Position numbers and translations under genes: made by a program. Positions 3,791 through 47,756 of a stretch of 64,000 bases of DNA are shown here, one piece after another (within the stretch, counting starts at the first letter, position 1; each line of letters begins with the position of its first letter). Below the pieces are notes generated by a model. That model did not search any database. It worked only from the letters and a program-made list of their open reading frames with translations, and was not told where the DNA came from. The DNA comes from Takakia lepidozioides (taxonomy: Eukaryota; Plantae; Bryophyta): NCBI GenBank assembly GCA_030704615.1, contig CM060734.1:40238001-40302000 (forward strand), read 5' to 3'.

Positions 3791-5140
3791 AGTGTTCAAA
3801 GTGGGGAGGATGAAGGGGTTCTGTAACTGATAGATTCCAGGAGAGAGACACATGCATAGGACAGGGAATTCCTCTGGATTTACAGGTCAAAATGTGCACC
3901 ATAAGCAGATGTGGTTAGCATGCCCAAATTTGTCCTTACCGTCTGTGTAGGCAATTCGAAAGTTGGAAGGGAAAAAGCCTTCTCTTGGAGACAGCAGGTG
4001 CCTCTAGTGGAGCAGATTTTATTTTCTGTTGGCAGGATCTAATATTTGATTTCACTTGACGAAGGTATGGCTACGGGAGAGAGTGTTGAAAGTAGCAATC
4101 CTCAATTGTGGGAGCGGGGAGGCTTTCACTCGCATGAGGCGCTTGATAAATGTAACCCAAGGGGTTACGGAAGCTCAGGCAGTCCAATTTTGGTATGGGA
4201 TATTGGACAAGGAGTTGAGGAGAAGGGTGCGGGATGCAACTCTCCTACAAGCGGCCCAACCCACCTTAACAAATGTGTTTTTGCTGGCAGAGCAGATAGA
4301 GCTCAACATGGTGGAGGAATGAGTGGTCATGGTGGGATTTGCTAAGGAGACACCACGGGGTAGTGGTGCTCCTAGCCAACCACTACCTCAATGTGCTCAA
4401 GGCAACAAGGGGGCTCAGATGAAGCTCAGGGAAGGGCAGAGAGGACCTCAGATGCATGGGTCTCTCCCTTCATTTGCAGGCCAACAACGGGCGGATGTGG
4501 TGTGTTGGACATGTGGAGGACCCCACGTCAAGAAGCAACGACGCAATGGCGTGAGCGTTGCACGTGAGCGCGCGAGCGTACGCTCACGCCAGCTGACGTG
4601 GCGTGAGCCTGCACACATGCTGACGTGGCGTGAGCGTCATGTCAGCATGCTGATGTGGCGGTAAATGATGACGTGGCACTGTCCGTCAACTGCCACGTCA
4701 GCATTAACATGCGCCGCCTATAACCGTGGATGGTCCTATGACCGTGGAATTAATGCAGGGAATCTTGCCTAAATAGAATCAAGACGAGCGTTGAGGCCTA
4801 CAATTGCAGCATCCAACATTGTGCAATTTCACTTTTACAATTACGAAGACGACAAAATATCCTCACAAAGTGTGCGCCATAAAGGCTGCCACGAGAAGAC
4901 TTCCTCCCTCCTCAAATAACAATGAGAGTTATGATCATCTTCAAAAGATGATTGTAGTGCATAGCGACAGCAAGACATGTAGACTTCGAACGGTGCAATG
5001 ACAAATGTGCACTACCTAAAAGTTGTCACTCAGACCTCACTCCGTATAGTTGGAGGCCATATCATTGCACAGCCGACGAATTGATGTGAATTACACATTT
5101 CAAATCATGGTCATCCACATACCACATTACATAGTTCATG

Positions 5141-8100
5141 CTACCCATGTGTTGTATCCCGCTGCAAAAGAGTATCGACCTCGTTGAAACTCATAGTGGC
5201 CTGGTGAATGAAGTTGTCACGTTTGGGATCGCAAACCATCCTCCTCAAAAATATGAAATACAAATGTTTGCAGGGTATGAATTTACCTCTCTTGCCCAAA
5301 CTGGTTGATAGCATATTCACAAAATCAGGACATGTGCAATTGGGGAAATTGGAAACCGTGATGTCGTAGGTCCTGTCATGAACAGCAGATGTGGAAGTGA
5401 TGATTGTGAATACCCGACCATATCCTGGATCGGGTACTTCCGTGGTGCTTCCGACACGAGCTTGGAGCATTCTTGCGGACTCCACTTTGCCAAAGTGTTC
5501 AGCGGTTGGAGGGAAACGCCGAACGAGCTTTCCATCTCGTTTGGTTGGCCACAAGTCAGGATTTGCCGGGGGGACCCGGGAGGACGCAGGAGTAGTAGCA
5601 CATGCATGGAGTTGGGGTTGTCTCGCAAGGGAAAAACCTGCCTCCTCCAGCATTTCAATCTCCTGAAAGCTGAGATGTGTTCCCACCTTCACGGGCCAAA
5701 CGGTTGGAGGAGATGGCTTCATCACTACGGAAGGACGCACAGTTCCATGCACACATCTGGCACAATCATCTGCGCAGAACCAGAACTTGTGGTTCTTGGC
5801 TTCTGGTTGACCGTATGGACGCATCAAGCCCGTGAAAGTCGGAGCAGGAGTTCGGGCACCACCTCTGGATATAGATGAAGTGCACTTCTCGAAATTAGTT
5901 GCCCTGATCGCTGTACATTTCACACGAGACCCGACACTTGTGCGTTCTATGTGCCAAACGTGGTCGGGGCATGCGGACTCAAGCACATCAAGGGGGTTGT
6001 TTCTCTCCTGCACCATTTCAGTGGCACGGTTTGATGCTGGAGCTTGCCGTCGTGTTGGAGGTTCCTCCACAATGGAGGTTCCGGACACGGAGCTGTCATG
6101 CAGGGGAACACGAGGCTTCGAGAAGTTATCACGGTCTGCCCTGTGGGAATCTGAATCCGAACCAGGTGGAGTGTTCAATTTCCTCTTCGAATCTCTCCTC
6201 CCCTTCAAGATGTGGAACTCTAGAAACAAGTGGCGTTCCCTGGGCATACATGCTCACCGCCCGTGCTATCTTGATTGGATCCCCAGATCTGTTTGCAGCA
6301 CGCAACATCAACTCCGATTTGTCCGGACCCTTGCCACCAACCCCACCTCGTAAGAAATCACGGTATCGGGTTTGTTGTTGCAAGGCACGTATCAAATCAT
6401 CTGTTGTTGCCACATACAAATCCCGACCTCGTTTCCCAGACTGCTGCAACCATGCATTGTGCACAGTTTCTGCCAAATTGCAAGATGGCATGTCTGCCAT
6501 TTCCTCAATGGACATGTTCTGCAAAGAGGATAACCACACTTCAGAATAGTGCACAGGAAACAACATAAAGAAAGCAATGAGTCAAAAATATGGAAAGCAA
6601 ATGTATGAATAAAGCATGAAATAGAAGCCTCGTACCATTGTCATGGCTGCTCCCCACTGTCTATACCGGAAGTGCCAAAACGCCAGCCAATCTTCCAATG
6701 CTCTCATACTCTCAAGTGATGCAGCTCCAGAAGAGAACCACCAGGCACGAATTGTCTGGAACAAAGTGTCCGCCTCCTTCATTGTTCTAGCATCTTTGTA
6801 CTCTTTGCACAATTTACGGTGCTGAGTCTGCATCTCTGGTTTGATGTCCGACTTTGTATGTTTTTCCAGAGATTGTGTCCAATGGAATAGACATGTACGC
6901 TCTCTTCCTGGCATAGGCACTTTTGGGTCGCCCGATCCGAAGACAATACGAATAGCATTGAAATTTGCTTGAGCACTATCCGCCATGAAACCTGCGAAAT
7001 TTGGAGATGGCAGCCCATGGCAGCCCATGACACGTATCAGGGAATTCCACATGAGCTTCTGGGATTCCGTATCCTCGGATTGCATGTCACAAACTGCAAT
7101 TGTCATAACTCGTTGGTACACTGGATCGTAGACATGACAAGCCATTGTCGTCCAATCCTTCACTCGTTTCACATGATCAAACATAAGAAAACAGTTCTGC
7201 AAGTCCCCAGTCTTCTGCATCCGCTTCACGAGGCTAACCCCACTGCCCTCCCCAACAGTCGACATTTTGAAAAGAAAAACTTTGATGGCACCTTGACCTG
7301 GGAATACATTGTCCTGGATGTAATCGTACTTGCTCAGTCGTTTCAATTCCAAAATATTGTCTATGTAGCCTCTGATCCCAGAGCCCATTCTCAATGCATT
7401 GATCTGATGCCGAATGTTAGGTGAACTTAAAGTGGAGAAATGATCCATGACCAGGTCCAATGCTGCACCGTCAAGTTTAGTCCCCACAGAATCTCCTTCA
7501 CTCAAAATATGGCTTTCCAAGAAGGACTTGCTTGCGCCAAGAGCAATTGCAGATGTTGTTGCGGATGGGTTTCTCCCGAACTCCTGTTTGATCAACCTCG
7601 ATACTGTCTCAACACTCTCCCTGTAATCCCCCTTCGAGACAGGATGGTTATGGAATCCAAAATGCACACAAGCTCTCGTCATTGTATTCAAACGGTGGAC
7701 AACATAGTACATTCTTGCTCCGCAGAGCGCCAAGCAGGATGGCACAAGTTTGCAGAATTTGCAGACGAAAGTGTTTGCCGGTGGAGGGGCAGTCCCAGGC
7801 TGAAATGGATTCTCCGCCAGACCCTCCCATTCGCTTTGATTATGAACTCCAGACTGAAGAAAGTGTCTGCAATTCAAATTATCACACCTAAGGTGTCCAT
7901 TGCAAACTGTCCTCCTGAAAACAAGCTTGTCATCATTCTGAATATTGGATGTTTTTGTTCTGCACCACGGGTGCCCGTCGTGTTTCTTGTCCATTCCATG
8001 CATCATGATTGTTACACCTCCAACTCGCGGAGGAGGAGGCAGCTCGAATAGGATATCGCCATCAAAAGTCTCCGGCAAGAACTTCACAGGCACCTGCTTC

Positions 8101-8648
8101 AAAGATTCCCAATCAATTCCCCGCAACTCACTTTTGAATCCAGCCATTCCTCCCATCGCCCGCAATTTTGGAATGACACTACAAATCTCTTCTTCATCAG
8201 CTTCTGCAACCACAGTAGGAAGGACTGGATTTGGAATTTCACTTATGTCATCATCGGAAGAATCCGAAAGCTCAACGATTGGAGTGGAGGAAGTCTGTTC
8301 TTTTTTCACCACCACCTCCCTCTTGTCTTCAACGACCGAAGCAGCAGTCCCGGGCGTCACATATGACCCAAGGGACTTTCGCCGAGGCTCTCCAAGTACT
8401 CTGTATCGACCAGGACGCACTCTCCACTGGCTGATATGAGCCGTCTCATCACGGTTTTGGAAAGAATATTTCACCAACTTCCCTTTCAGATCGTAAACCT
8501 CTTTCTCCAAAAAGATGGAGCCATTCTGCAGCTGAAAACGGGTAGCCAAGACATGTTCCAGAACAATTGCAAATCCATTGTCAAGGACTTCCTGGGAGAA
8601 CGGCACTGGTTTGTCGTCTGAGAAGAACTCCGCTTCAGAGGAAGCCAT
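5141..8648 (-). CDS. MULE transposase: GCM/WRKY-like Cys/His domain, DDE core, C-terminal SWIM finger; apparent frameshift near 6190
   Basis: LMFDHVKR / FMADSAQA / CLFHW / NLAETVHN catalytic pattern; SWIM CTCPDF...PCKH; phase-0 GT-AG intron 6519-6635; frame change between ORFs 6129-6566 and 5141-6247. Confidence 0.88.
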
Positions 8649-9503
8649 CTTCCTTCCTCGAGTATGTTTGTACCTTGCTATCGCAGATCTAGTGTAAATC
8701 GGTTTACTGCTGTCTCCAGAACACAGTTGAAGAATGAGCAGAGCATATGGCGGAGGAAGCTCAGATAACGACTGTGCATATTCTGTTATTCATTCCAGAT
8801 ATGCAGCCGTCCATTTTAATTACTTTTCTTGTGGGCCCAGTGGTCAGAGAATCCATAGGGGCAGTGTCGGCAACTGTTAAACCGTTAATCAGAACCTCAT
8901 CAATAAACCCAATAACAAAGCCGACTTCCTGGAAGCATGCCACAGGATCCGAGAATGGGATTGCAGATTAAGTAAATGTATCTATATACTACTACCAATG
9001 ATCATGCGCACCTGGAAAGTTCCAAATGTGCAACGAATGTGGGGTTTGGATAACAAGGATGACCGTGTATGATATTCCAAAATTTGTCATCAAACTCTCG
9101 TTCATTTATATTTATTTGTTTAAGACTGCGCATCAATTTCTGGGATTCGCTGTTCTTTTTAAATATTGAACCAGTTATAATTTAGAACACGCCGTTTTGT
9201 TTTGGGCGGCACACGTCAGACATCCATAACTGAATACGAACAGCTGTACACCAATTGCTGGCATGTGCACTAATAACGAAACGACTATGTGTAACGGTCA
9301 CGCGGGAGGGAATCCGATGCTTCTAGAGACACGCAAGAACACAGGCAATCCCGCAAGAAATCGGGAGTCACTGCGTTTTTCTACTTTTCGCGCTTAGAGG
9401 GAGAGTGGTAGTCAAGCTGGAGAGGGTTCCTTCTAGAATACGAAAGAGAAGAAAGTCTCTTTATTTTACTTCCCTTAGAGAGAGACGCAGAGCAAGAGAG
9501 AAA

Positions 9504-12500
9504 ATGACGAGGCGTCGTTTGTTGGAGAACACAGGGCCAAGGCAGCAGGTGAACGCGGAGACTGATTCACAAGAGCAGACGGAGACTGAGGCAGCGGCTG
9601 CGACACAGCCGGCGATAAGAGTGCGCCAGCCTGTGGAGGCAGAGATGAATCGCAGGGACACTGAAGAAGGTGGAAGCACGCGGAACGCCGAACCTGAAGA
9701 AGGTCAAGAAACCCTTGCGCAGACAGAAACTCCAGCAGATGTGAGAGGGAAGAGGAAAGCTGCAGAAGGGGATCAAAGTTCAAAACCTAAGAAGGTGCCA
9801 GTAAGTTTTATCATATAGTCTATGTGATTGCCTTTCAAGGAGTCCTTCCTCTTCCATTCTTTAGCAGGAACTACTGAATCGCGAGCGTCGTTAACGCCAT
9901 TCGATTCTGCTCATGAGATTTATGTACCTATGTGTTTGAAGAGAGAGTCTGCACTTACTATTCTCCCTAAACTACACTGAATGTCGTTGCCGCCAATCAG
10001 TTGCACATATATGTCATTACACAACACCGATCCGGCAGGTTGTTATCTTTTGTGATTGTCGTTAACGCCGTTCGCTATCGCTCTCACTTTTGTTTTGAAT
10101 ACGGCAGTCTCGGCTTTGCATGTGTAGATTGTGCTGAATTCTTTCACACCATTCATGGTGAGTTTCCTTGATACAGAGTGATTGTCGTTACCGCCATTCA
10201 CTATTTGCAAATCACTTAGTCAGAACTGAATGGCATCGTGCAGAAAACTGTGAGGTCGAAGCCTACAGGATCAGAGGGGAAAGGATCTGGAGATGGGGAC
10301 GAGTCCGCAAAAAGCTCAGAGAATACAGATGAAGCAGATGAATCCGAAGTGCACTACCTTGACAAGGTGAAAGAACTCATGTCATTCCAGAAGGTAAACT
10401 CTCAGGAGGTTATAAGGGACATGCTCGTATCTGGAGGGCGTCTGGACATACCTCTGTGCCGGATGATATCAATGCCTGTTGTGCGTCCACCTCTTTCCCA
10501 TGACATAACAAAATTGGAGAGTGATTTTGTGCATGGATATAGACTTGGTGCACAAGTTTTTTATGTGTCACTGACGGATATAAATGGGAAAAGCACATTA
10601 GTTTCTCCAGAGATCAGTGATAACTGGGATGAGTGCTGGAAAGATGCCAATGAGGAGTTCGAGCTGGGCCTCATGATGGGAAAGAACACCCAGCAATTTT
10701 GCAACCACATGTTCTACGTCTGGGACGGCAACCACCGATTGCTGGCATGGATGGGATACATTCAGAAACACCATTCGAAAGACAAAGACAAGCATGTTGC
10801 TGTGGAGGCAATGGTTTTGGATCCAGGAAACGACATCGCTAGGCTTCTTACAGCTATGCACGACGTGAACAAGTAAGTCATCCAGGAGATTTGATTCCCT
10901 CTGTAGTGTCTTGTTGATCCTCAAAAAACAGTGTTAAGGAATGCAATGTTTTCAATGTTTTTGCAGATCGACAGAGAAATCGCATGTGACAACAAGCTTG
11001 GTTCACACACTATTCCGAATTCAGAGGATTGGTCTGATGAAGCTGGATGATTTTCGGACAGTACTACCACCCAATATCATCAAGAAGTGCGAAACAGGAA
11101 GAGCTGCAGGCACTTGGTATTCTTTGACACGAGAGGCGTTTCTGGAGTACATGTATGCGGTAAGCCCGAGTCTGTAATCTGTTTACTTTTCGAATACATG
11201 TTTAGAGTCCCTTCGGAGCTAATCACTACTTGAATGAATGCAGCAAGAACTGGCAGAGGCAGCTGAGAAGGGAAAATCCGAATATTACCGCACTACACCA
11301 GAGGAACTAAGGACATCAAAGGGTGTGGAAGCTGCAATAAAGAAGGAGTTTGAGATGCGAAGAACCAAATTGATGTCAGCCTTCGGAAAGCAGCTTAGAA
11401 TAGTAGATCCTGGACTTGGTCCTGAGTTCCTTCAGCAGATCAAAACACACTATGACAAGCATGTGCATCCGGAGATGCAGCAGGAGAAATTGCACCGGCT
11501 GGCCATATCGATGGTCGACCCACAAACAAAAATAAGGTGGCTGGAGATATGGAACTCAGATCAAACAGTAAAGGACTTGAATCAGTTCCCAAAGAGCACC
11601 ATACAGCCTGGCACAAAGGTGGAAGGAATCAGTGATTTGGTGTTTGATAACTGGCTCCACAAGGCTACATTTTGGAGTCAGGTGTGTATTCGAACATGCT
11701 GTTTCTTCTCTTCAAGTATGTGATGTGTTTCTTTTTTGCAATTCTGACAAATATACTATTTGCAGCTCGAAAAGCGCGCCGTCATTGTGCTGGATCAGAC
11801 TTTGAAGGACCTGAACATTGCGATTGTTTCCCCTCCCCAAATGTCATTGGAGGCATACATAAGGAAGTGGAGAGGTCTCACCTGGAGATACTGTTTTTTC
11901 CGGGAGTTCTCCAAAGATGGTAACATTTTACGGTCCAACGACTTTGACAGTCAGGTTGGAGGAGAGTGGGCCATGATGCGAGTTGTGTACAGGTGAAATG
12001 TCATACTTGAAACTCTACTGTTTTTTTGGGAAAAATTGTGGCTTCATATGGATTGCAATCTTAGATCCAGATTGAATGTCGTTGACGACATTCACTTCTT
12101 TGTCTGAGTCATTCTTAAGCGAGTATATGAATTCACCTGGTTAGGATCTAAGGGTGCAATTATATTGTCCCTGATTAGAATTGATAATGTCCTTGAATGG
12201 CGTTGACGACATTCACATACGGAGTTGTTGTGTGGTCCTCAAGGTTATTTAAATTTTTGTAATGTCCATAGAGGTTACAATGAGGGTTGATCACTTCATT
12301 TTGCTGAATGTCAATGCAGACATTCAGTTGTTCTGCATTGTTTTTTCCTCTTGCGATGAATATGGAGGCTTCATAAGCTCTGTTTTAAGAAATCCAAAGT
12401 GAATGTCGTTGACGACATTCACAGCTGTGTCTGTATTATTAAAAAACGACAAATTCAATTTTCATGGATTGGGGAGCTAAGTAATTGGTTTCTTTTTTGT

Positions 12501-15141
12501 ATTTTTGTGAATGGCGTTGACGCCATTCACATACAGTGATGTTGTGAGGTCCTCAGTGATAGGTTCGTTATGAATGTGCATTGAGTTTTCCTGGATGGTT
12601 CCTTACTCAATTTTTTTATTTCCATCCTGTGATTTTGCTTCATTTCAGTAATAATTTGGCTTCATTCTTGAATGTCGTTGACGACATTCACTTCTATGTC
12701 TGTGTCATTTCTAATCGCTTATTTGCATTCACCTGGATTAGGATGTATTTACAGTGTCATGGAATGGAATGTTCTGAATGGCGTTGACGACATTCATATC
12801 TGGAGCAGTAGTGTGGTCCTGAAAGGTCCTTGGAGCAGTTGTCAGAGCCATTTCAATCCATGTTTTATTCTTTCTGTTCTACTTGCATCTTACTCACTGA
12901 GCGCTTTTGTGGGTTGGGATTCATCTCCTTTTTTCAGGTACACGAAATATGTGCTTATGGAAGGAAATCACCTGAGCGGAATTCCCGACTATCTTGACAT
13001 GTGGTCGGACCCTGCAAACGATCCAACCATGTATACTGCAGGGATATTGAAGGACTGGAGTCCTTCTCACTTCAGAGACTGTGGGTGGTACCTTGACTGC
13101 CCACCTGAGCACACGACCTTTCAAGAACAGCATATGAAATACTTGAACAATAACGCTGAGATGCTGGCGCCTTTGACTGACGAAGAGTATCAACGAAACA
13201 TAGCAACCTTGGCTGCCAAGGAGCCTGATGCTCAGGGAACGCCGCAGAAGGGAAAGAAGGCGGGCCGCAAACCAAAAGACAAGGCTGTTGATGTCATAGC
13301 CATCTCACCAGCAAAGCCAAAGGACAAAGACAAGTCCAAAGAGAAGGAAAAGGACAAGGGGAAGGAGAATGAAAAGGAGATGGAGAGTGGGCAGGACTTT
13401 AGTGCTGGAAGATATACCCGCACTCTTCAGTGCGTGTTCGATGCCAAGCCACACCCTTCCCGTTCTGATTCAGCAGGAGAGATGAAAATTGTTAATGAGG
13501 GTTGGCTTTCGATGATGCAGAGTCGAAAGAGAGGATACACTGGGGTGCCATCCCCTACCTGGGACAATATAATCTCATTCCTCAATCTGGTGAGAATTCC
13601 ATTTTCTTTCCTTTTTCTCTGAATGTTTCGTTGGCAGTATTTCAGTCTCGTTCTTTGAAAACATTCTTGCCATCGTTCTTATAAAAAACATGTCTGTTGC
13701 AGGTGAGCACAGGTCCCACCTTCGTGTGCGGTGTGCAGAAAACTTATGCGGCCGACATTGTCATTCTCGACATCCCGGATGGCCAGGCTGTGCCAGAAGT
13801 TCTTCCAAAGGGCAAGACGCCAGGGTGGAACAAATTCGAGGACAACTACTGGAGTTGGGTATTCGGGTTCTGTAACAATTTCCTCTCTGATGCAGGGACA
13901 CTTCTGCTTTTTCAGTCATGTGACAATGATAGTCGTCGGGCATTGGCATCATACCTCAAGTCTTCAGGGTTTGAAGTTTTGCGCACATGGAATTGTGTGA
14001 ACAGCCTCTACCTTGTGAAAGGGGGTTTCCCTGGTCAGCTGGTATGCCGTCTGCCTTCTGCTTATGCTTTGATCATGAGTTTCAATTTTCTCTGCAGCTC
14101 CACTCTAGTAGAATGTTTTATGATCGACACCGATCATCAACGATTCATGGTTTTTTGGTGTCAGAGTTCTGAATAGCCGATGTACACACTTCCACTTTAG
14201 ATTGTGTTTACCACACTAACCTGCTATCTTTGGCAGACGAGGATGTTCGAGGCGATCTGCCTGCGGAGGATTCGCACATCAAAGACACCATCCTCCATCC
14301 GCAGCTTTGAGATTTCTGACCAGGGTTGTTTCGTCAACCCCCCCTATGAGCCCCATGTCGATGACATTTTGTACAACTTCATGCAGTCCAGTCAGACTCT
14401 GAAGAGACCAGATGGCACTCCCTGGAGAGGTGCAAAGGAAAAGTCACCAGCATTCATGCAAATACTGCTGGAGTCATGCAGCCACCGCTCTGCACGGGTG
14501 GTCGATCTTTCTGTGTCCACAGGTTCGTTTTCTCCCTTCCGAATTGGTTTCCTTTCAACAGTTTCATCTGCTTAAATCCCCTCCTCCAAACTGTTTATGT
14601 TCTCCTGTCTGGTGCAGGAGCAACTTACCACGCATGCAAGGCAGGCGGAAGAAGCCTTTTTGGTATGGAGGGTGATTCTGACCTCTACAACACAGTGCTC
14701 CTCCCCCTTTTGTCTGGCTCCACTTCAGGCACACAGACTGATCGGATTCATATTCGAAATGATGACGATCCCGAAGATAAGCAGGTCGACAACGACTTTT
14801 CATGTGAGTAAGTGCTAAACCCTCTTTGGGAGTCATACTCAATTTCTCGATAACATCAAAGTTACAGTAATAACTTTTTCAGGCTGTCTTTCAGGAAAGC
14901 CAGCGGTGGATCTTCAGGAGATACAGTCATTTCTGGCGAGTCTGTTTTCGACAGCCCCCTTTCCAATTTTCTGCTCCCTGTTTATGCCGAAGCAATGGCA
15001 CTTCACGCGTCCGAGTCCCTATCCCCTGACTTTTTAGTGGCCAGCCGTAGGTGTATCCAGCGTGGATCCGGTGTTCTAAAATACTTAGACTTAGATGCAG
15101 AGGAAGAGGGGATACATTGTACTGACTCTGAGTCAGACTGA
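9504..15141 (+). CDS. MULE accessory gene, ~1165 aa, 10 exons: ParB/Srx-like domain plus C-terminal beta-class (N6A/N4C) DNA methyltransferase-like domain
   Basis: Exons 9504-9800, 10244-10872, 10967-11159, 11244-11681, 11766-11992, 12938-13589, 13703-14041, 14237-14522, 14618-14807, 14895-15141, all GT-AG and phase-compatible (last exon least certain). Motifs: FYVWDGNHRLLAW; ADIVILDIPDG; FLSDAGTLLLF; EKSPAFMQILLESCS...VVDLSVSTGATYHACKAGGRSLFGME. Confidence 0.78.
9882..10200. repeat. Degenerate array of 22-bp palindromes in intron 1 of the accessory gene
   Basis: Copies starting at 9882, 9978, 10053, 10135 (weak) and 10179, related to TGAATGTCGTnnACGACATTCA. Confidence 0.8.
12073..12796. repeat. 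Array of seven 22-bp palindromes in intron 5 of the accessory gene
   Basis: TGAATG(T/G)CGTTGACG(A/C)CATTCA at 12073, 12194, 12305 (variant), 12400, 12508, 12669, 12775; set in a diverged ~270-330-bp higher-order repeat. Confidence 0.92.
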
Positions 15142-15260
15142 ACTGTATTCTTTTAATATTCATTTTCATATTATCTGGAAAACGTTGAATCCCCTTACTC
15201 TACCGTAGTTGTTCCTTTAGAACAAATAATAATCACAGAATCAACTTTCGTTTAAATTGC

Positions 15261-15630
15261 TATATGTATGAATCCATCTCACAAACCTTCCTGACTCTTC
15301 TCATATCCATTGTGCATTCATCTACACTGTATTCATGCGTGCTCCATTCATGAAAGCTTCCTTTGTACAACATCCATTGTACATTCATCCTCTGTACTCT
15401 TTAATCCACCCCACAAACCTTCCACACTCATTTCATATACTTTGTGCATTCGTCAAAAGATTTGGTCATGCATCTTCCTGTCATGAATTTTTGTCATTGC
15501 TCAACATCCATTATACATTCATCCATTTTACTCTTATCCATCCGTCATTCATCCATCTACATAGATTTTTCAAACTCATCCATCTGTTTATCATCCAACT
15601 GTACATTCATCCATCATTTATTCAATGCCT
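15261..15630. repeat. Subterminal low-complexity (TAC)ATTCATCC repeats of the MULE
   Basis: Multiple CATTCATCC/CATCCAT units just inside the right TIR. Confidence 0.65.
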
Positions 15631-17376
15631 TTTATTATGTCGTCCAGCTTGTTTCCGCGGTAAAGGGTGCCAATCCGCGGGAATACACTCCACTTCTTTC
15701 TGGGTGCGTGGTGACTCGGCCTCCACGTGTGATGACGTGGACTGAGCCCCGTGACGTGGCATTTGCGCAAGGTGACGTGGCGTGAGCGCAGTCGCGCTCA
15801 CGCGCTCACGCGCTCACGTGACCAGGCTCACGCCGAGGCATCCCTGCGTCAAGAAGGATTGTCCAGAGGGAGGCAAAGAGCCGGCACATGCACAGCCTGC
15901 ACAGTTGCAGTGTGGGCATTGTGGCAAGCACGGGCATGGAGAGGCCCAGTGTTATGGTTTGCATCCCGAGTTGCGCCCAGGCCAGTTCCAAGGGAACAAT
16001 GGTGGTCGGGGGCGAGGGGGAGCAGCCCAAAGAGGACGAGGTGGCCAGGCACGGGGTGTAGGCCAAGGGCAAGCTCAACAAGGCCAAAGACGCGGAGGTC
16101 AGGGTGTTGACCAAGGCATGGCCAACCGGCTTTAGCAGCTAGAGCAGAGGCTTGCTGCCATGGCTACAGCTCAGGTGGTACCGGCTCCAAGGCCGGATGG
16201 TCCACCTCCTGCTCCTAAGGGAGGAGATATGGGAGGTATGGAATTCATGTGCGGGGCAGCACTACCACTAGTGCATGTAGAGTCTGCTGCAGCCGTGACT
16301 CGAGGAGCAGCACGAGTTCCTGAGCCACGAGGTGCAAAGGTGGAGTTGGATCCACAGCGTGGGGAGGCAAGCCGTCAGGCTAGGCTTCCTCAGTCATTCA
16401 CATTGGCGGAGACAGTGTCGACGCCATCCATGGCACCTAGTTCTCGCCCGACTGTTACCGAGGCGGAGGTTACTATGCCATTAGGGAAAGCTACACGGGT
16501 AGCACCACTATCTAGTGTTGCCAAGGCTACGGCAGCTAGTGTGCTGCTGGAGGCGGCCACAGCTGTGTGCCAGGCTCCATTGTTCTCGGCTACCATGATT
16601 GTGACGTCGGGGGTAAGACCAGCTGAGGTGTTCAGGCTGGTAGCTACACTCTGTGAGAGTGGGGAGGTTACTTCATCTTCTATGGAGATAGTGGGAGGTG
16701 TAGTGCCGGAGGGATCCTTGGATTTGAGGGTCAAGACTGCCACGGCGGCGCCATGGCAAGCTGCAGCTGCCAGGTTGATGGAGCTGCCAGCTAGACCAGC
16801 CATTGAGCGCGCCATGGTGACACCTGGAGTTGTCATGTTAGACAACCAGGATGGCATTTTCTGTTTGAGTGGACCAGCACGCAAGAGGTACCGGCCACTG
16901 CGGGTCTTGTTGGACTCGGGCTCAGCCATTGATGCTGGGCGGAGCTACTATTGTAGGCTTGGGCCTCACGGAGGTGGATATGGAGCCTTGTCCTTTCTAG
17001 ATACAGACGTCTCTGGGAGGATCGGAGCAGGCTCGGGGCATGACACGGCGTGAGTTGGCTATCAGACTACAGCCGGATCATCCTACAGATGGCTCAGTGA
17101 TGAGAGCCAAGGCCATTGTGACAGACGCGGTCTCGTACGATGTCCTTGTTGGTGGGATGGTGTTGTACCCCATGGGCTTCACCCTGGATTTTTGGGAGGA
17201 GTCAGCTTCCTATAGGCCTAGATGGCAGTCAGGGGAGGGCCGGCATGTGTAGCTCCCTGTGACGTTCATAGGAGGAGTTGCGGTTGCCCAGCGAGGCAAG
17301 ATGCCAACACTGGTAGCATTCACAGTTGCAGTAAGTGGGCCTGGAGAGTTGCTAGAGGGCAACGCTCATTCAGAGG

Positions 17377-18666
17377 ATGTGTCCTCCGGGAGAGCAGAAT
17401 GACATGTATGGTATGGCGGAGTTTCCTGCCATGGTTGCTCACACTCCATTGTGGGGTTCGAGCAAGGATTTGCAGCGGGTTGCTGATTGTCATGTGCAAC
17501 AAGCCTGGGTAGAGGCTTTTGTACCGTCAGGAGAGGAGGACAGTGTGGGGATTGCACCAGGACCACCTCAATTGTCACCATTGGACACCACACCGATTGT
17601 GTGGCCGTGTCCGGATGAATGCATTTGCCTTCTGGACTTGTTTGGCGGGATCAGCACCGGATCGGTTGTTGTTCTACAGGCAGGTGTACGAGTACGACAT
17701 TACTTGTATGTGGAGAAGGATGAGACTACACGACGCGTCTCACTCTGTCATATTGCTCAGTTGGTGCAGCAGTACCCTGAGTTGTTGCCGGTTTCTGCGG
17801 TTCATGGATATCAGCAGGCCTTGCCAACAGACATTTCGTTGCTGGGGGCGCAGGATTTGGAGCAGGTTGGCTCCATTGATCTGGTAGTGGCAGGTTGGCC
17901 CTGCCAAGGGCATTCATCAGCCGGGCATGGCAATGGATTGCGAGACTCGAGGTCGGGTCTGTTTTGGGAGATGGTGCGGGTTTTGCGCCACTTGCAACTT
18001 CATCAAGCTGTATCTCCAGCATACATATTGGAGAATGTGCCACTGATGGGCGATTCTCGGGGCAAGGTGATGGCCAGTGTGCATCAAGTCCGGTTGTGGC
18101 TTGGGTCAGCAGTGTTGCTGGATACAGCTACAGTGGGGTCACGGGCTCATCATCCATGGCTATGGTGGACTAACTTGATGCCACCCGCACTGCTCAAGCG
18201 TGCATTTGATGGGGTGCAGCGGCTAGCACACCTCATAGTGGATAGCATTTTGGACACAGGGAGGCAGTCTCAGCGTGTGAGACACGATGATCGTTTGCCT
18301 TTGGCAGTGGTCAACATGGTGGGTCAACCACGAGCAGCATTACCTACACTGCTCAACTTCCCAGGATCGCATGCTTTCCGGGATAGTGGACCTAGCCTCC
18401 TGTGGGATGCTCAGTTGCAGCAGTTAGTGGAACCTAATGCTGAAGAGCGTGAGCAGGCGATGGGTTTTACCACTGGTACCACGGCGGTGTCGTCTCTTTC
18501 TGAGGCATCACGTCGTCAGGTGTTGGGGCAAGCAATGGATCTCAATTGCTTGACCTGGATTATCAGCTTGGCTATGGCTGAGCAACGCAGAGTAGGGAGT
18601 ACACTTCCCTCGATGGTCTCTCTGCCTACCGAGACGGTACAGGCAGTGAGTAGGGGCGGCATGTAA
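17377..18666 (+). CDS. DNMT3-like C5 cytosine methyltransferase domain of the retroelement polyprotein (copy 2)
   Basis: Motifs I LDLFGG, II VEKD, IV AGWPCQGHS, V SGLFWEMVR, VI ILENV, VIII (AHHPWLWWTNL here, AHRPRLWWTNL in copy 4), IX EQAMGF, X RRQVLGQA; uninterrupted ORF. Confidence 0.92.
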   Translation: MCPPGEQNDMYGMAEFPAMVAHTPLWGSSKDLQRVADCHVQQAWVEAFVPSGEEDSVGIAPGPPQLSPLDTTPIVWPCPDECICLLDLFGGISTGSVVVLQAGVRVRHYLYVEKDETTRRVSLCHIAQLVQQYPELLPVSAVHGYQQALPTDISLLGAQDLEQVGSIDLVVAGWPCQGHSSAGHGNGLRDSRSGLFWEMVRVLRHLQLHQAVSPAYILENVPLMGDSRGKVMASVHQVRLWLGSAVLLDTATVGSRAHHPWLWWTNLMPPALLKRAFDGVQRLAHLIVDSILDTGRQSQRVRHDDRLPLAVVNMVGQPRAALPTLLNFPGSHAFRDSGPSLLWDAQLQQLVEPNAEEREQAMGFTTGTTAVSSLSEASRRQVLGQAMDLNCLTWIISLAMAEQRRVGSTLPSMVSLPTETVQAVSRGGM

Positions 18667-18846
18667 GGACCACGGGGTGCAGGCATCCATGGCACACGTA
18701 GGAGGTGCTCGAGGTTCAAAGGGAGTTGGCAGCCAAGGTGGCGTGATGGATGAGGTTGGGGATTTTTCTCAGGTTGAGGAAGTCCTCGAGGATGAGATGA
18801 TGAGGCAAGATGAGGCCTTGTCATTGACTGAGCAGGTAGGGCCCTG

Positions 18847-19188
18847 GATGTCACTGCAGGGCGTGTTATTCTGAGGGTTCGAGAGCTGTTGCCCTCAGGA
18901 GTCCTGATCTTGGAGGGTCGGGATGGCATGACTTGGAAAGACCATGTGCGTAATTGTGCGCCATGTCACCTTCCCAATGTCGATGGCAGAGTTGACCCAA
19001 ACTTGGCAGTGGTACCTGCAGGTTTGAGGTGCATGCTTTGTGGGTCTGCTAAAGGGGCAGCCACCATGCTGATGTGTGATCGATGCTCAAGGGGTTGGCA
19101 TATGGGATGCTTGACACCACCTCTTGAGAAGGTTCCTGACGGAGATTGGTTGTGTCCACACTGCTTGGGATGGTGGCAGTGGACATGA
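18847..19188 (+). CDS. Integrase C-terminal-like segment plus PHD finger (copy 2)
   Basis: ILRVRELLPSGVLILEG...DHVRNCAPC followed by CMLC...MLMCDRCSRGWHMGCLTPPL...WLCPHC (C4HC3). Confidence 0.85.
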   Translation, partial: DVTAGRVILRVRELLPSGVLILEGRDGMTWKDHVRNCAPCHLPNVDGRVDPNLAVVPAGLRCMLCGSAKGAATMLMCDRCSRGWHMGCLTPPLEKVPDGDWLCPHCLGWWQWT

Positions 19189-19442
19189 CTGGAGGCAGCT
19201 AACAAGACATGGGAGGTCAAGCTCATAGGAGTCAATACATGAGATCCCAAGCTCAAGTTCATAGGTTGCAAGATGGGAACTAACGATGGGGCAACTCCTG
19301 CACCACTTAAAGCATATTCGCAAAGATTTGTGAAGATTAACATGCAATACACCAAATCAATGTTTCACAAAGGTAACAATATTTGTCAACAATTGAGTTT
19401 CACTTATTTCTTGCATCATTATCTCCCTTGTTTGAGCACTTA

Positions 19443-20542: not shown

Positions 20543-22926
20543 TGCCCCTAGTGATGGAGACATAGTCGGGTGACCAGTACATCCTCCACTCCTCGATCTC
20601 AACCTCATGCCCCCACCTGAACTCATGGTAATCATCCATAGGCGGCCCCTCAAGGTGCTGAAACAGCCCCTTCCATGCCATGAAAGGCGTAAATAGTTGT
20701 GGATTGCGCATTTGCTGCAAATCACACCAACTATCAAACTCTTGGATAAAATCATCCAACTCGATGGTGCCCACCGCCCCAGAGTACCTTCGTGGCCCCT
20801 TGGTAGCTCCATACATCTCCTCCATTGTGTCCCACAACAATGGCAAGGAAACAACTTGCACCGCCGGTATGAGTCCTCCTGATTCACAATCCGAATCAGA
20901 ACCTTCCGTAGAAGACACAGGAGGTGAAGGTGGCCTAAACCGCATACCTCGTCTCGTGTACCCACTAGTATCGCTAGTGCTCGAACTGGCATTGTCCCCA
21001 ACAACTAGTGGCACCTCCGTGTTGACACTCAACCGATCATGAACATGTCCCTAACCCCCTCTCCACAAGGTAACCGGGTAGAGAACCTGTTGCGGCTTAT
21101 GGTTTGGAATACTAAGTTCCTAACATAGCCTACACCTGTACCTGCATCCACCGCAAGCACTCCTATGGTTGGCTGGTCATCGCCTCCAACCTCACCACAG
21201 GAGAAACAATGATGGTCTGGCTGGTCATCACCCCAGCCTCACCATCGACAGCATGCTCTAGGACTGGCCGGTGATCAAATCCGGACCAATCACCTATAAA
21301 AACAAGCGCCCACACAAAACTAGCATGACGCACAGTCAAGCATGCAGGTATGGAGGGGATCCAAACACAAGAAATCAGAACGACAACTCCCCCACACCAA
21401 AAACAACTCCACGGTGTTGCTCCTGCAAGGACACCCCAGCCCAAACCTAGACTGACTCTTGCCTCCACCTACGGAAAGGTCTTGGCCTAATGAGAGGGTG
21501 GAAACTACGAGGAAGAGAAGCTAAAGCAATGCCTAACCCCAACATGCCCTCATGCCAACACTCTTCCTCTCCTCTCTTCCCTCACTTGCATGACCATGGG
21601 AATATCATGAAGATACTCCTCAAACCGCCCTCCACGAGCTTCAAAATTCGGCCTTCAAGACCACATGCCAGTCCTTAGGCAGTCCACCAGTGCCTCTACG
21701 AGTCAGCACAGGTCGTCCACAGGTCAACACGGGCCACCACAGACCAGCACAGGCCCACACAGATCACTGGTCACAGCCGTCATAGCCCCACACAGGCCAC
21801 AGCCCATCACAACCCCACGGCCACATGTCACAGCCTGTCACAACCCATCACAACCCCAAAGGCCACAGGCACAGCCTGTCACAGCCCTACAAAGGTCACC
21901 GTGTCACAGCCCCAAAGGCCACAACCTATCACAGCTCCTCACAGCCCGTCACAGCCCCACAGGCCACAGGGCACAGCCTGTCACAGCCCGTCACAGCCCG
22001 TCACAGCCCCACAGGCCACATGACACAGCCTGTCACAGCCCTACACAGGTCACAGGGGTCACTGCCCCAAAGGCCACAGCCCCTCACAGCCCGTCACAGC
22101 CCCACAGGCCACAGGGCACAACCTGTCACGGCCCCTCACAGCCCGTCACAGCCCCACGGGCCACATGGCACAGCCTGTCACAGCCCTACACAGGTCACAG
22201 GGCACATCCTGTCACAGCCCGTCACAGCCCCAAAGGCCACTCACTCCAAGGGGTTTAGCCACGCCAAGCTAGGGTTTGTGTCTCTTGGACTCTAGGCTTC
22301 TTTGCACCGAGCTATGGCGGCTGTGAAGAAATCAGCAATGTATTCTTGCTCTTTCGGCTCCCACACACCACCAATAATAGCCCTAAGCCATGAGGAAGAT
22401 GGTTGCCACAAACCAAGCCTTCTTTCTCACTTAGACTCCCCAAACACGCCACTAAACTCAATGGCAAACAACCAAGCCTTGTTGGTTTCCAGCCCTTGTG
22501 AGCACTCATTCAAGCGTTTTCCTTGGCCATAGCATTTGTTTTAGAGCCTATTCCATCCCCCTACATCTGCCACTTCAAGAGCCATGCTCTATCTAGGCTT
22601 GAGGTTGGAACCCCAACTAAGGACACGCTCTACAAGTGTCGGACTGTCACATAAGAGCAGATCAGCCCCTTACATTCTCTTCTAGTTCTCTAAAGCTTGA
22701 AAACAAAAGCCCAATGGACTGAAAGCATGCTCCATACATGCCCCACTAGCGCGGTGAGGCTCAACTCGAGAAAGATGAGCCTCCCGCGCTTGCCGTGAAG
22801 ATAACCACTCCAGGGCCTAAATCTGCCTTGACCCCTGGATTGACACTTGGGCCAATCCCAAATGTCAATATGTAAAAGCTAGCTATTTCCTAGCTAATTT
22901 CACACTAGTGGTAAAATAACTTGACA
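20543..22926 (-). mobile_element. DNMT-carrying retroelement, left part (copy 3): A end, minisatellite, gag N-terminus
   Basis: Reverse complement of 47414-~50750 with internal deletions; terminus TTGACA at 22921-22926 flanked by CAAG. Confidence 0.92.
21770..22235. repeat. CACAGCC/GTCACAGCCC minisatellite within the retroelement leader
   Basis: Short-period tandem units; shorter than the equivalent array at 48924-49525. Confidence 0.9.
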
Positions 22927-24420
22927 CAAGGCTGGCACAACAAGGTTCAGCACCTCAAGGCCAGAACCTAGAAGTTCAGTCAACTGAAGGTGGTTATCCT
23001 CCTACGTCAAGTACAGAGGAGAGTATTGGTATGTTGTTACCACATGATCCATTTAGACATGAGACAACAAGGTCCACGATAGAGAAAGAGAAAGCGAATC
23101 AACATTACAAGTTGATCAACAAAATTTACGTAGGTCTACTCGGACAAGGACACCGTCCTTAAAATTAAAAGAGTCTCTCAGCAACGCTTATGCTTTTTTT
23201 ACCCAGACTGATGAGCCTTCCACAATAGCAGAGGCTTTGTCTGGACCTAATGCAGATAAGTGGCAAGATGCTCTTGATTCTGAGTACGACTCTCTTATAA
23301 AGAATAGAACGTGGACTTTGGTAGATCCTCCAGTAAACAGATCTATTGTCAGCTGTAAGTGGGATAAGAATGACCTCTTTACGAACAATCTTCTCTTTAG
23401 CTGCTAACCTAGATCTGGAAATACACCAGATGGATGTTAAGACCGCGTTCTTAAATGGTTATCTAAAGGAGGAGATTTATATGAAACAGCCTGAAAGCTA
23501 TGTCAAAGCGGGAAAAGAAACTAAGGTTTTTATGCTACTAACAACACTTTATGGCCTCAAACAATCCCCAAGGGCATGGTATGAGCGAATAGATTCTTAT
23601 CTATTGAAATCTGGTTTTGCTAAAACTCCAGCAGATTCAAATGTCTATGTTAAGCGCCATCAAGCTTTTTTGTATTGTTAGGGTTGTATGTTGATGTGTG
23701 CATCATTGTTGGAAACGATTTGAAGTTTCTGAAAGCAACAAAATCGGAGTTGTCAAGTGAGTTTGAGATAACAGATAATGGTCCTATTGAGTATTGTCTC
23801 GGCATACAAGTATCTAGAGATAGAAGAAAAAGAATAATTCATTTATCTCAAGAAAAATATATACGAGATACACTTAAGAAATTCAATATGGAATTATATA
23901 AAGCTATCTCTACACCAATGGAACCAGGAAGTAAGCTTTCCAAGGAAATGACTCCTGAAAGTAAATCTGAGCAAGAGGAGATGGTAGATATTCCTTATTC
24001 AAGTGTTGTGGGCAACCTGATGTACATTATGGTGTGTACACGACCCGATCTTGCTTTCCCTGTAAGTCAAGTTTCACAATTTATGGCAAATCCTAGAAAA
24101 CAACATTGGCTTGCTATAAAGCGGCTTTTCAAGTATCTTCAAGCCACTATAACTTTTGGACTTAGATACGGGATTCAAGTTGAGACTTCACCAGCAAACA
24201 CTATTCAAGGATGGTGTGACGCTGATTGGGTAGCAGATGTAGACAATTGGCGTTCTGTCACAGGTTATATATTTTGCATGAATGGAGGAGCGACATCGTG
24301 GCAAAGCAAGAAACAAGCTACTATAACTCTTTCGAGTACCGAGGCAGAGTATATGGCTGCTGCACATGCAATATAGCTTAGGCAGTTAATTAGTGGACTT
24401 GGATTCCCAAGCTCACCCAT
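22927..24420 (+). mobile_element. Ty1/copia retrotransposon, 3' half (RT and start of RNaseH), degenerate
   Basis: LRRSTR, EPSTIAEAL...W, QMDVKTAFLNG, LYGLKQSPRAW, LYVDV, CDADW, SSTEAEY; internal deletion near 23363; no 3' LTR seen. Confidence 0.92.
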
Positions 24421-30350: not shown

Positions 30351-33300
30351 ATGGGCTTACAAAGACGAATCTGGAGAGTTGGGTATGTTCTACCTCCATC
30401 TCTGTGTCCACAGTTAAACCGAGAAAAGCCAGGAGAGAAGTGATTGAAGTAGGCATAGATTTAGGGGTTGATCTTTGTGTTTGCCATGCAGGGAGGCGGG
30501 ATCGCAAAGCTGGAATCGGACTCAGGGGTTTATTCGCCATCAGACCCGGGACGAGGGCTTTCCCCTCGGCCCTTCCAATATCGTGGCTGATTCTAATGTA
30601 GCACAAAGACAAAGACCAAAGAGGACGGGAGGCAACAGGGAGACTTGTTGGGGTACTAGTATGAATTTGCACACAGTGTGCGAGGAGGGATTGAATGAGG
30701 CATTGCACATGTTGGATCTGAGCAAGCAACGTGGATTTGGATCATATTCCGATGCGTGTGCTTATCTCTTGCAGGGTTGTGTTAAGAGAAAAGCCCTGGA
30801 AGATGGCAAAGGGATCCATGCCCACATTATGAAAAGTGGATTCTTGCCAAACGTCTTCCTAGAAACCTCCCTTGTCAGCATGTATGTGAAGTGCGGGAGT
30901 GTTAGCGATGCCCTCCAAGTGTTTGACAAAATGCCAGTACGGAATGTGATATCTTGGAATGCAATGATCACAGGTTTAGTTCAGCGAGGGAATCATGTAC
31001 AGGCAATGAAACTCTTTCAGCAAATGCAAGCAGAAGGAATGGAGCCAAACAAGATCACCTTCCTGACCATCGTCAACGCATGTGCCAGCCCAATAGCTCT
31101 GGAGCAGAGCATGCGGATCCATGCCGGCATCATCAAAGCTGGACTGGAGTCAGATGTCCGCTTGGGGACTGCCCTTGTCAGCATGTATTGCAATTACGGG
31201 AGGGTGGAGGATGCTCGCCAAGTATTTGACAGAATGCCCAAGCGAGATGTGGTGTCATGGACAGCGATGATCACAGGATTTGCTCACCACGGGTATGGTG
31301 TTAAGGCTTTGGAATTCTTTCGTCAAATGCAAAGAGAAGGTATGAAGCCGAACAAGGTCACTTTCATTAGCATCCTCAATGCATGTGCCAACCCAGCAGC
31401 ACTGGAACAAGGCAAGCGGCTCCATCAGGAACTCATCAACGATAGATTTGAGTCAGACTATAGAGTTGGGACTGCTCTTGTCAGCATGTATTGCAGGTGC
31501 GGGAGTGTTGTGGATGCGCGCCTAGTGTTTGACTTAATGCCTAAGAAAGATGTGGTCTCATGGAATGCGATAATCGCAGGGTCTGCTCAGCATGGCCATG
31601 GTGAGGAGGCTTTGGTACTCTTTTGGCACATGCGAAGAGAAGGCATGAAGCCCAATTGGATAACTTTCATTAGCATCCTCAGTGCATGTACCATCCCAGC
31701 AGCTCTGGAACAGGGCAAGCAGGTCCATGCAGACATCAACCAAGCTGGACTTGAGTCAGATGTCCGAGTGGGGACTGCCCTTGTAAGCATGTACTGCAGG
31801 TGCGGAAGTGTGGAGGATGCACTCCAAGTGTTTGAGAAAATTCCGAAGGAAGATGTTGTCACATGGAATGCAATAATTACAGGACTTGCTCTGCATGGTC
31901 ATGGTGAGGAGGCGTTGGAATTTTTTCAGCAAATGCAAAGAGAAGGCGTGAAGCCTAACAATGTCACTTTCATTAGCCTCCTCAATGTGTGTGCTACCCC
32001 AGCAGCCTTGGAACAGGGCCAGGAGTTCCATTCAGGCATTATTAAAGCTGGGTTTGAGTCAGATGTCCGATTGGGGACTGCCCTTGTCAGCATGTACTGC
32101 AAATGTGGGAGTGTGGTGGATGCACGCCAAGCATTTGATAGACTAATTAAGCATGATGCAGCCCCGAGGACTGGGGTGATTGCAGGATCTGCTCAGCCTG
32201 GTCATGGAGAGGACTGCAGTAGTGGTGAGAATGCACGCACCATGCAGCCTGCACAAAATGTGACTTTCTGGAATGCAATGATTGCAGGATATGCTCAGCA
32301 AGGGCATAGTGAAGAGGCACTTGAACTTTTTCGGCGAATGCATAAAGAAGGCATAAAGTTCGATGAGGTTACTTGCATATCCCTCCTTGCCACATGTGCA
32401 AGCCCAGAAGCTCTGGAAGAGGGCAAGTGTGTCCATGCCAACATCATCGACGCTGGATACGAGTCAGATGTCCGCGTAGGGAATGCCCTTGTCAGTATGT
32501 ATTGCAAGTGCGGGAGTGTGGTGGATGCACGCCGAGTGTTTGATGAAATGCCTAACCGAGATGTAGTCTCGTGGACTGTAATAATTGCAGGATCTGCTCA
32601 GCAAGGACATGGAGTAGAGGCACTTGAACTCTTTCGACAGATGCAAGAAGTAGGGGTGAAGCCAAACAGGTTCACCTTCTTGAGCATCCTCGGGGCTTGT
32701 GTCAGCCTAGCATCACTGGAAGAGGGCAAGTGGGTCCATGCCCACATTATTAATTCTGGAGGATATGAAGCAGATCTACTTGTGGCGAATGCCCTCATTG
32801 ACATGTATGCAAAGTGTGGGAGTGTTGGTGATGCACGGCAAGTATTTGACAAAATTAGCGACAGAGATGTGTTCTCATGGACTGCGATGATCACTGGATA
32901 TGCTCAGCATGGGCATGGCAAGGACGCCCTTGAACTCTTTGAACAGATGGAAAGGGAAGGGGTGAAGCCAAATGAGGTCACATTTATTGGTGTTCTCTCT
33001 GCCTGCAGCCATGTTGGCCTAGTGGATGAAGGCCATTATTACTTCCTTTCCATGAGTCGAGATCATGGCATCACACCATCAGAAAAGCACTGTGGCTGCA
33101 TGGTTGACCTTCTTGGCCGTGCAGGATGCCTGGATGAGGCAGAGGATTTTATCAAAGAAATGTCCTTTGAACCAGGCACGTCAGTGTGGGGGGCCTTGCT
33201 TGGTGCCTGCAGAATTCATGGCAATGTGGACCTAGCAGAACGGGCCGCACACTGTATTGTCAAGTTGGAACCGCAGAATGATACAGTATATGAAGTGCTT

Positions 33301-33375
33301 TCAAACATCTATTGTGTGGCTGGCAGGTGGGATGATGTGGAGAACGTGAGGAAAGTAATGGAGGGTAGAAGGTGA
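30351..33375 (+). CDS. PLS-class pentatricopeptide repeat protein with E domain (organellar RNA-editing factor type)
   Basis: Long P-L-S array (VVSWNAMI / PNKVTFISIL / GTALVSMY), E domain VWGALLGACRIHG. Start inferred at 30351 with intron 30383-30490; main ORF 30475-33375; stops before the KEPxCSW box, no DYW. Confidence 0.92.
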
Positions 33376-45896: not shown

Positions 45897-45988
45897 CGCA
45901 GCCTCTTGGCCGCTAGAGCTGGATGACGATGACCTCCTATCGCCGGTGGCTGACTACCTTCCTCCCTTCGAGACCAGTGCCCTGATAG

Positions 45989-47739: not shown

Positions 47740-47756
47740 ACTCGAGAAAGATGAGC
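47740..47756 (+). promoter_or_regulatory. Putative self-priming primer-binding site
   Basis: ACTCGAGAAAGATGAGC, at the end of A, is the exact reverse complement of 47560-47576 inside A. Confidence 0.65.

Follow-up and report, generated by a model that had tools for sequence, protein, structure and literature searches.

Retrotransposons that carry a cytosine methyltransferase have been published for dinoflagellates and for one charophyte, with the role of the enzyme left open (PMC5890265). A more recent paper speaks just of 'streptophytes and dinoflagellates' and cites that 2018 work (PMC12344493). We found no published description of such elements in land plants, nor any account of split-repeat Gypsy replication or of a circle-junction route of insertion, in a literature search with subscription papers, theses, repeat databases and supplementary figures beyond its view. 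The concept and the algal element are thus already known, and what is new is the moss family described here and the anatomy of its ends.

The window analysed is a stretch of 64,000 nucleotides from the moss Takakia lepidozioides (contig CM060734.1, positions 40,238,001 to 40,302,000, forward strand). It contains two copies, A and B, of a Gypsy-type retroelement encoding a DNMT3-like methyltransferase and a PHD finger, and both are dead deletion derivatives. We lean, though not strongly, towards reading them as reverse transcriptase (RT)-less copies of an abundant moss element whose full-length relatives read Gag, protease (PR), DNMT, RT, RNase H (RH), integrase (INT) and PHD, and whose inserted form is likely a circular permutation of a cDNA with two long terminal repeats (LTRs).

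Two deletion copies and their full-length relatives

An earlier note, made from the letters of the window alone, had placed two copies at 15847-19188 and about 53106-54650. Both are present, but the element is larger than that, and additional pieces of it lie elsewhere in the window:

1-979, +: 3' end of a third copy, with the PHD end, purine tract, B1, GC, A2 and B2; flank CTTG
4117-4535, +: copy A, 5' gag piece, 99% identical to 51006-51424
15847-19304, +: copy A, main piece, truncated at its 3' end; gag end, protease, DNMT, deletion junction, integrase tail and PHD
16913-16921: copy A, protease DSG motif
17611-18600, +: copy A, DNMT domain (open frame 17356-18666), both motif VIII arginines replaced
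18841/18842: copy A, deletion junction, the same as that of copy B
19024-19173, +: copy A, PHD finger, Cys4-His-Cys3 complete
20543-22926, -: 5' part of an element copy, from the start of A to the start of gag; flank CTTG
47414-55096, +: copy B, a whole deletion copy of the form A-coding-B, ends TGTC...GACA; flanks CATT (47410-47413 and 55097-55100)
48915-49560, +: GC-rich short tandem repeat array in the 5' non-coding region of copy B
50438-51649, +: copy B, Gag, two zinc-knuckle-like motifs, stop at its end
52276-52750, +: copy B, aspartic protease region, frameshifted; DSG at 52396-52404
53096-54085, +: copy B, DNMT3-like C5 methyltransferase domain; stop at 53174-53176
54327-54328, +: copy B, deletion junction; RT, RNase H and integrase core gone (about 2.8 kb)
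54328-54656, +: copy B, integrase C-terminal tail and PHD finger (54510-54656)

The Gag of copy B matched PF03732 with an E value of 0.0012, under the cut-off, and is homologous to the N-termini of the Marchantia and Sphagnum relatives; its protease region is 50-56% identical to that of Marchantia P0007. Comparison with the domains of relatives shows RT, RNase H and integrase core to be absent from both copies, which also contain frameshifts, and the gag of copy A is further broken by an 11.3-kb insertion (4536-15846), whose inverted ends are imperfect and whose target duplication is 10 bp long. The domains that the earlier note had named, a DNMT3-fold methyltransferase after the protease and a PHD finger at the integrase tail in two copies, were borne out by Pfam and by the fold match. 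Its pairing of a chromatin writer with a reader was not: only 425 bases separate DNMT from PHD in the window because RT, RNase H and the integrase core have been deleted, whereas RT-RH-INT, about 3.2 kb, lies between the two in full-length relatives, where the PHD belongs to the integrase. A DNMT-PHD fusion protein is ruled out by that intervening stretch and by the different frames of the two domains.

Copies A and B are about 97% identical, and read depth suggests many more, in agreement with the multiple closely similar copies first noticed. Summed contig depth in DNA run X1 was 0.59-1.19 million over the element and 58 on the flank. The value cannot be taken as a copy number, short overlapping contigs inflate it, and we read from it no more than that there are likely thousands of copies in this moss. 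Longer copies exist in this organism, as contigs of X1 (27 and 14), X5, X6, X7 and X12 end at 54325-54330 and continue into sequence that has no counterpart in the window, while no piece bridging the deletion was found among the X6 and X7 pieces listed. Depth in the junction bin was 364k, against 844k and 991k beside it, with equal dips at window-specific variants. Run X8, which bears a second organism label, gave long pieces about 94-96% alike, and run X12, which may be RNA, covers the element in part, a cover that we do not count as expression.

The architecture of the family was read from 80 metagenome loci and from protein relatives. RT lies downstream of DNMT in 57 of the 62 loci with room for it, and PHD downstream of the integrase core in 27/27. 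The RT of a Marchantia member is nearest to Ty3 among solved structures (E 4e-48), a Pfam scan found the PHD and no chromodomain after the integrase, and no tyrosine recombinase was found in the window open reading frames (ORFs) or in the 14 polyproteins scanned, a scan that did not take in the 5' non-coding part of the loci. The PR-RT-RH-INT order of relatives, the Ty3-like RT and an organellar ProRS gene of the window that groups with mosses agree with the assignment, already made from the letters, to a Gypsy-type element in a land plant. An independent deletion at L012:10001-11545 likewise joins DNMT to an integrase tail and PHD, and more distant integrase-PHD elements with B-A-B ends and a purine tract before B occur at L067:14613-17198 and L070:9107-9565.

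By protein search, relatives with 57-69% identity over the whole DNMT domain occur in Marchantia polymorpha and Calypogeia fissa, and shorter or weaker matches in M. paleacea, Riccia, three Sphagnum species, Klebsormidium (44%) and Haematococcus (31%). The Gag-PR-DNMT-RT-RH-INT-PHD architecture was seen in Marchantia, Calypogeia, Sphagnum, Closterium and Klebsormidium. A profile search gave 503 clusters (50% identity) with E values of 1e-30 or below, many of them with a second order, RT-RH-DNMT-INT-PHD, which is complete in 36 proteins and has Scenedesmus and Cymbomonas as named members. No host DNMT3 or DRM came up among the best 150 of the 16,298 profile matches or among the protein-search matches listed; an Atlas search contributed no more than a single Streptophyta-rich cluster of DNA methylases and two from phages. 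Proteins P0237, P0282, P0053 and others form a large chlorophyte-type set with DNMT between RNase H and integrase.

The two orders split in a DNMT tree of 139 rows with near-full domains (40 against 89 labelled rows, SH-aLRT 99; midpoint root, without outgroup, host DNMT3 or DRM) and again in an RT tree of 79 rows (8 against 55, support 96; no outgroup, two rows long-branched and unreliable, and no window RT to include). Haematococcus falls with the second-order set in the DNMT tree. The Klebsormidium nitens element lies on the same side as the bryophyte copies in the midpoint-rooted DNMT tree (99), whereas in the unrooted RT tree its RT groups with the chlorophyte-type set (96), apart from them. 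Sphagnum DNMT groups with Marchantia (96) and leaves this moss outside, a departure from the host tree that points to old paralogues or horizontal transfer. P0027, P0001 and relatives are Sphagnum and Marchantia retro-DNMTs on short branches, a possible moss-liverwort horizontal transfer.

Pfam matched PF00145 at 17356-18663 (E 1e-12) and 53177-54148 (E 4e-13). DNMT3A was the best match by sequence in the PDB (E 1.2e-7), and an AlphaFold model of the copy A domain (pLDDT 78.6, pTM 0.83) resembled DNMT3A/B in fold (Foldseek E 7e-16, target TM 0.78, about 19% identity). Together with motifs IV, VI and VIII, seen across the family in an order that is unrearranged, unlike that of DRM, this upholds the DNMT3-like identity. 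The claim of recognisable C5-methyltransferase motifs stands for the domain, with the correction that both motif VIII arginines are lost in copy A and copy B is interrupted by a stop. Across loci the catalytic Cys is kept in 71/73 and the Glu in 71/77, and the two motif VIII arginines in 45/78 and 57/78, the losses being mostly to His, Cys, Gln or stop.

The DNMT is under purifying selection between subfamilies. The median ratio of nonsynonymous to synonymous divergence (dN/dS) between window and loci was 0.10 (81 usable of 160 pairs), and deep locus pairs gave 0.25 for DNMT (n=422), 0.17 for RT, 0.13 for INT and 0.39 for Gag; at least 100 shared codons were demanded and saturated DNMT pairs were dropped (79 of the 160 window-locus pairs and 367 locus-locus pairs). 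The family-wide value near 1 that the earlier note had held out as contrary evidence was not what we found.

The PHD finger matched PF00628 at 19024-19173 (E 1.6e-11) and 54510-54656 (E 1.3e-11), with all zinc ligands conserved. The residue two before the His is Gly rather than Trp in 28/29 locus and 55/60 protein PHD columns, and we take this Trp position to be the site of the methyl-lysine aromatic cage. Top PDB matches were CHD4, PHF12, KDM5B/5A, ATXR5 and PHF21A, several of which are presumably readers of the unmethylated H3 tail. PHD fingers are widespread in retrotransposons, where a role in steering insertion has been suggested (PMC6673714; PMC8557442). By analogy with chromodomains, the PHD on this integrase is likely to steer insertion too.

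Split repeats at the element ends and a possible insertion route

The ends of copy B are not direct repeats of one another, and the third copy (window 283-979) shows the order B, GC, A, B. The features on which the reading of these ends rests are as follows:

283-472, 473-474, 475-801 and 801-979: B1, GC, A2 and B2 of the third copy
468-478, no strand: B1-GC-A2 junction with the palindrome GACAGCTGTC (469-478), putative integrase cut site
47414-47740, +: repeat A, 327 bp, putative 3' part of the replicative LTR; 94.8% identical to 475-801
47560-47575, +: predicted self-primer, putative RNA 5' end; exact reverse complement of 47741-47756
47741-47756, +: primer-binding-site position immediately downstream of A; pairs with the self-primer at 16/16 and does not resemble a tRNA
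54909-54917, +: G-rich purine tract adjoining repeat B
54918-55096, +: repeat B, 179 bp, putative 5' part of the replicative LTR

Beyond the end of copy B at 55096, 66 contigs of X1 extend further, and their majority letters, at an agreement of 0.43, are GC followed by the beginning of A. The full layout A-coding-B-NN-A-B was found in loci L043, L068, L075 and L076, where A1/A2 identity is 90.6-94.5% and B1/B2 identity 91.3-93.9%; these values are similar, and both pairs have therefore aged alike. Target duplications of 4 bp flank 7/7 loci with both ends (6 distinct sites) as well as copy B. The element thus behaves like a Gypsy element in its signals, yet it is not a canonical LTR provirus: in place of two full direct LTRs, inserts end in A and B-GC-A-B, or in A and B. 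The replicative LTR itself is likely to be B-GC-A, to judge from the arrangement of signals, because the purine tract adjoins B and the primer site adjoins A. The purine tract lies next to B, and not next to A, in the 18/18 family loci printed as well as in both window copies. At the centre of the B-A junction palindrome, the 12 junctions printed have GC in 5, its transition product in 5 and other letters in 2.

In the window, the 16 bases after A match the reverse complement of A positions 147-162 without a mismatch. At the same place in the family, 12 of 19 loci pair at 12-16 of 16 bases (6 of them at 15-16), although 10 of the 16 self-primer bases differ from the window in pairing loci; random positions reached maxima of 12 and 13 in 400 draws each. 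The leader fold has a z of -8.0. A tRNA primer was rejected, since the sequence that follows A has no site of the TGG type.

Of 8 distinct sites, 5 have a clean A2|B2 seam with a one-base overlap and the other 3 a ragged one with filler or lost bases; one of these retains 9 bases of the primer site. Past B1, 8 of 22 loci run into A and 14 do not. Loci L053, with a single B, and L072, with B-A-B, have a common 3' flank (94-97%) and are the same insertion, so that the short A-coding-B form can come from later recombination; one-LTR circles are excluded as a needed source of that form by this shared site.

Based on this anatomy, we can offer a proposal for how the element might insert. Transcription would begin within A, and roughly the first 16 bases of the RNA would prime reverse transcription in the manner of Tf1, which is self-primed by its RNA 5' end (PMC7175516). 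Plus-strand synthesis from the purine tract would yield a linear cDNA with the LTR B-GC-A at both ends, and joining of these ends into a circle would leave the A2|B2 seam. Integrase could then cut the palindrome GACA-GC-TGTC of the primer-side LTR with a 2-base stagger, producing CA-3' ends and the 4-bp duplication, much as foamy virus integrase cuts a palindromic circle junction (PMC1180852). The short A-coding-B form would arise, at least sometimes, through later B-by-B recombination. The integrase PHD likely reads the histone H3 tail and would so steer insertion, and the DNMT, once released by the protease, likely methylates the new cDNA (a hypothesis already put forward in PMC5890265); this may hide the cDNA from the host or shield the second cut site. 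The ragged seams, being such as end-joining would leave, support an end-joined circle.

Several observations weigh against this proposal. If the cut of a two-LTR circle were symmetric, roughly one insertion in two should show the mirror form A-B-GC-A-coding-B; none of 16 distinct 5' flanks, from 19 loci, and neither of two window starts did, so a bias of the cut must be assumed. Pairing is poor in 7 of 19 loci (8-11 of 16 bases; four of them with a shortened A), and the compensatory evidence for the primer comes from two sequence types alone. All runs are contigs, in which neither cDNA, circle nor RNA 5' end is observed. As for the enzyme, dN/dS is 0.56-0.72 between shallow copy pairs and about 1.07 between copies A and B, values that fit dead copies and are no proof of current function. 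The observed/expected CpG ratio is 0.50 in the element and 0.41-0.63 in host genes and other elements, and so shows no self-methylation signature, and no methylation was seen when the retro-DNMT of Klebsormidium was tried in yeast, a result that its authors call inconclusive (PMC5890265). Finally, streptophyte PHDs mostly lack the acidic residues present in chlorophyte-type PHDs.

The missing mirror form (0/18) would be explained by a route with no free circle, in which RT would jump from the end of A to the start of B through the one-A overlap and recopy B, and integrase would cut the nascent palindrome. This would yield A-coding-B-A-B alone, and the five clean seams with a one-base overlap suit it as well. 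The three seams with filler or lost bases do not, we found no direct precedent for such a jump in the literature, and its end product is identical to that of the circle route; we consider it unlikely, while giving it appreciable weight. Strand transfers of the DIRS/Ngaro kind would also lead to a circle, here from the internal B-A junction, with a DDE integrase in place of the tyrosine recombinase and with the purine tract and self-primer incidental. The repeat layout is indeed that of SymbioDIRS-Dnmt3, and the Klebsormidium layout has been called DIRS-like (PMC5890265). Yet a purine tract at B and a primer site at A are what an LTR B-GC-A calls for and are conserved across subfamilies with saturated dS, and the RT is Ty3-like, target duplications are present and no recombinase was seen in the ORFs and polyproteins scanned, which together make this explanation improbable.

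The DNMT could have been kept for a non-catalytic job, such as nucleic-acid binding or particle structure, or could methylate RNA or host DNA. The inactivity of the Klebsormidium enzyme in yeast (PMC5890265), the incomplete retention of the motif VIII arginines and the lack of element-specific CpG loss all speak for this. Against it, the catalytic Pro-Cys and Glu-Asn residues are kept in more than 90% of mostly dead copies, the arginine losses are mostly those that deamination of dead copies gives, and de novo methylation of CG is known from the related SymbioDIRS enzymes (PMC5890265); on this evidence we regard it as a minority possibility. An element-specific methylation signature was itself dismissed, as CpG content falls in the range seen elsewhere and the transitions between copies A and B (18/266 CG, 26/407 CHG and 33/1217 CHH sites) look like those of the host. 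Neutral decay after a one-off capture of a host DNMT3 by a local element, which the earlier note had named as the outcome contrary to its own, would fit the neutral divergence of copies A and B, and the DNMT tree contains neither host DNMT3 nor DRM. Within that tree, the window DNMT sits among liverwort, moss and algal retroelement DNMTs. The whole-domain identity to Marchantia and Calypogeia retro-DNMTs, the 503 clusters, the conserved position in the polyprotein and the low dN/dS between subfamilies (0.10-0.25) make such a capture extremely improbable, and the spread of the family refutes it unless the moss's own DNMT3 nests inside the clade.

A broader form of the end-joined circle proposal is more tentative, and we think it rather doubtful as a whole. 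DNMT3/PHD Gypsy elements would form a green-plant-wide clade older than land plants and overlooked for want of paired LTRs, and would transpose obligately through end-joined cDNA reopened by integrase at a palindrome inside one LTR; their own methyltransferase would mark the cDNA and might protect the second palindrome from being cut. That shielding is speculation, but if true it might account for both the one-sided permutation and the repeated capture of methylases by split-repeat retroelements.

Neighbouring features of the window

The piece at 20543-22926 is likely the other end of the insertion whose 3' end occupies 1-979; it would sit in a copia element and have been inverted afterwards. 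The copia element is in two halves of opposite orientation (981-4116, match 1486-3162 on the minus strand; 22927-24376, match 23654-24376 on the plus strand), and each half adjoins a DNMT-element end with the same 4-base flank, reflecting either a post-insertion inversion or an assembly join.

The 11.3-kb insertion at 4536-15846, which we take to be Mutator-like by its traits, contains a 735-aa ORF (6582-8789, -) without a credible Pfam match and a weak SWIM match (5141-6250). Its other strand has exon-like ORFs (9327-14176) without Pfam matches, one of which (10220-10876) shows a DGNHR motif while another (13685-14176) looks faintly methyltransferase-like by eye.

The organellar ProRS gene (44151-45953, -) is a single uninterrupted, intronless ORF. 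Among named proteins it scores best to Ceratodon, and in a tree it groups with mosses outside the Ceratodon pair (96/93). A tandem array of units of about 42/85 bp (45987-46757) lies directly upstream of it. A long, intronless PPR-like gene (30472-33375, +) has 303-bp repeat units and appears to be PLS-class by eye.

Comparison with known systems

A plant LTR survey demanded paired LTRs (PMC6317226), and such surveys would therefore likely miss the whole lineage described here. Bryophyte genes annotated as 'DNA methyltransferase' include copies of this element. The moss lineage and the many annotated copies in Marchantia polymorpha make the role of the methyltransferase testable with existing genetics, and the end anatomy gives a checkable account of an element whose DDE integrase would act within a permuted cDNA and not on the LTR ends of a linear one.

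The closest described system is KnitGypsy-Dnmt3 of Klebsormidium nitens, which also has an unrearranged DNMT3-like domain in the Gypsy Pol between PR and RT, DIRS-like A-coding-B-A-B repeats (noted in one legend line) and purifying selection on the DNMT (PMC5890265). Its order is the same, PR-DNMT-RT-RH-INT (P0039, partial at the PHD end), and it lies on the same side of the DNMT tree (SH-aLRT 99). It differs in having an algal host, whereas the moss element lives in a land plant in likely thousands of copies, and it was treated as an acquisition of the K. nitens lineage (PMC5890265), while relatives of the moss element occur in liverworts, mosses, Closterium and, re-ordered, chlorophytes. A PHD finger is not mentioned in the main text of that paper (0 matches), and its searched sections and text supplements contain no primer site, purine tract, target duplication or insertion route for KnitGypsy-Dnmt3 (PMC5890265).

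Tf1/sushi and plant Tcn1 chromoviruses resemble the moss element in their predicted self-priming and in bearing a chromatin-reader fold at the integrase C-terminus (PMC7175516; PMC6317226). The moss element differs from them in having a PHD rather than a chromodomain, in the added DNMT and in its LTRs, which are split and permuted. Among elements of the DIRS order, Ngaro and PAT are others with split direct repeats. SymbioDIRS-Dnmt3 combines the A-coding-B-A-B layout with a captured methyltransferase (PMC5890265), from which the moss family differs by its DDE integrase, Ty3-like RT, 4-bp duplications and purine tract and by the absence of a tyrosine recombinase from the ORFs and polyproteins scanned. 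Foamy virus integrase, finally, offers a parallel for the cut, since it produces processed ends by cleaving a palindrome within a circle; that palindrome is the LTR-LTR seam and its cutting restores the order of the genome (PMC1180852), whereas the palindrome of the moss element would lie inside the LTR, and the order stays permuted.

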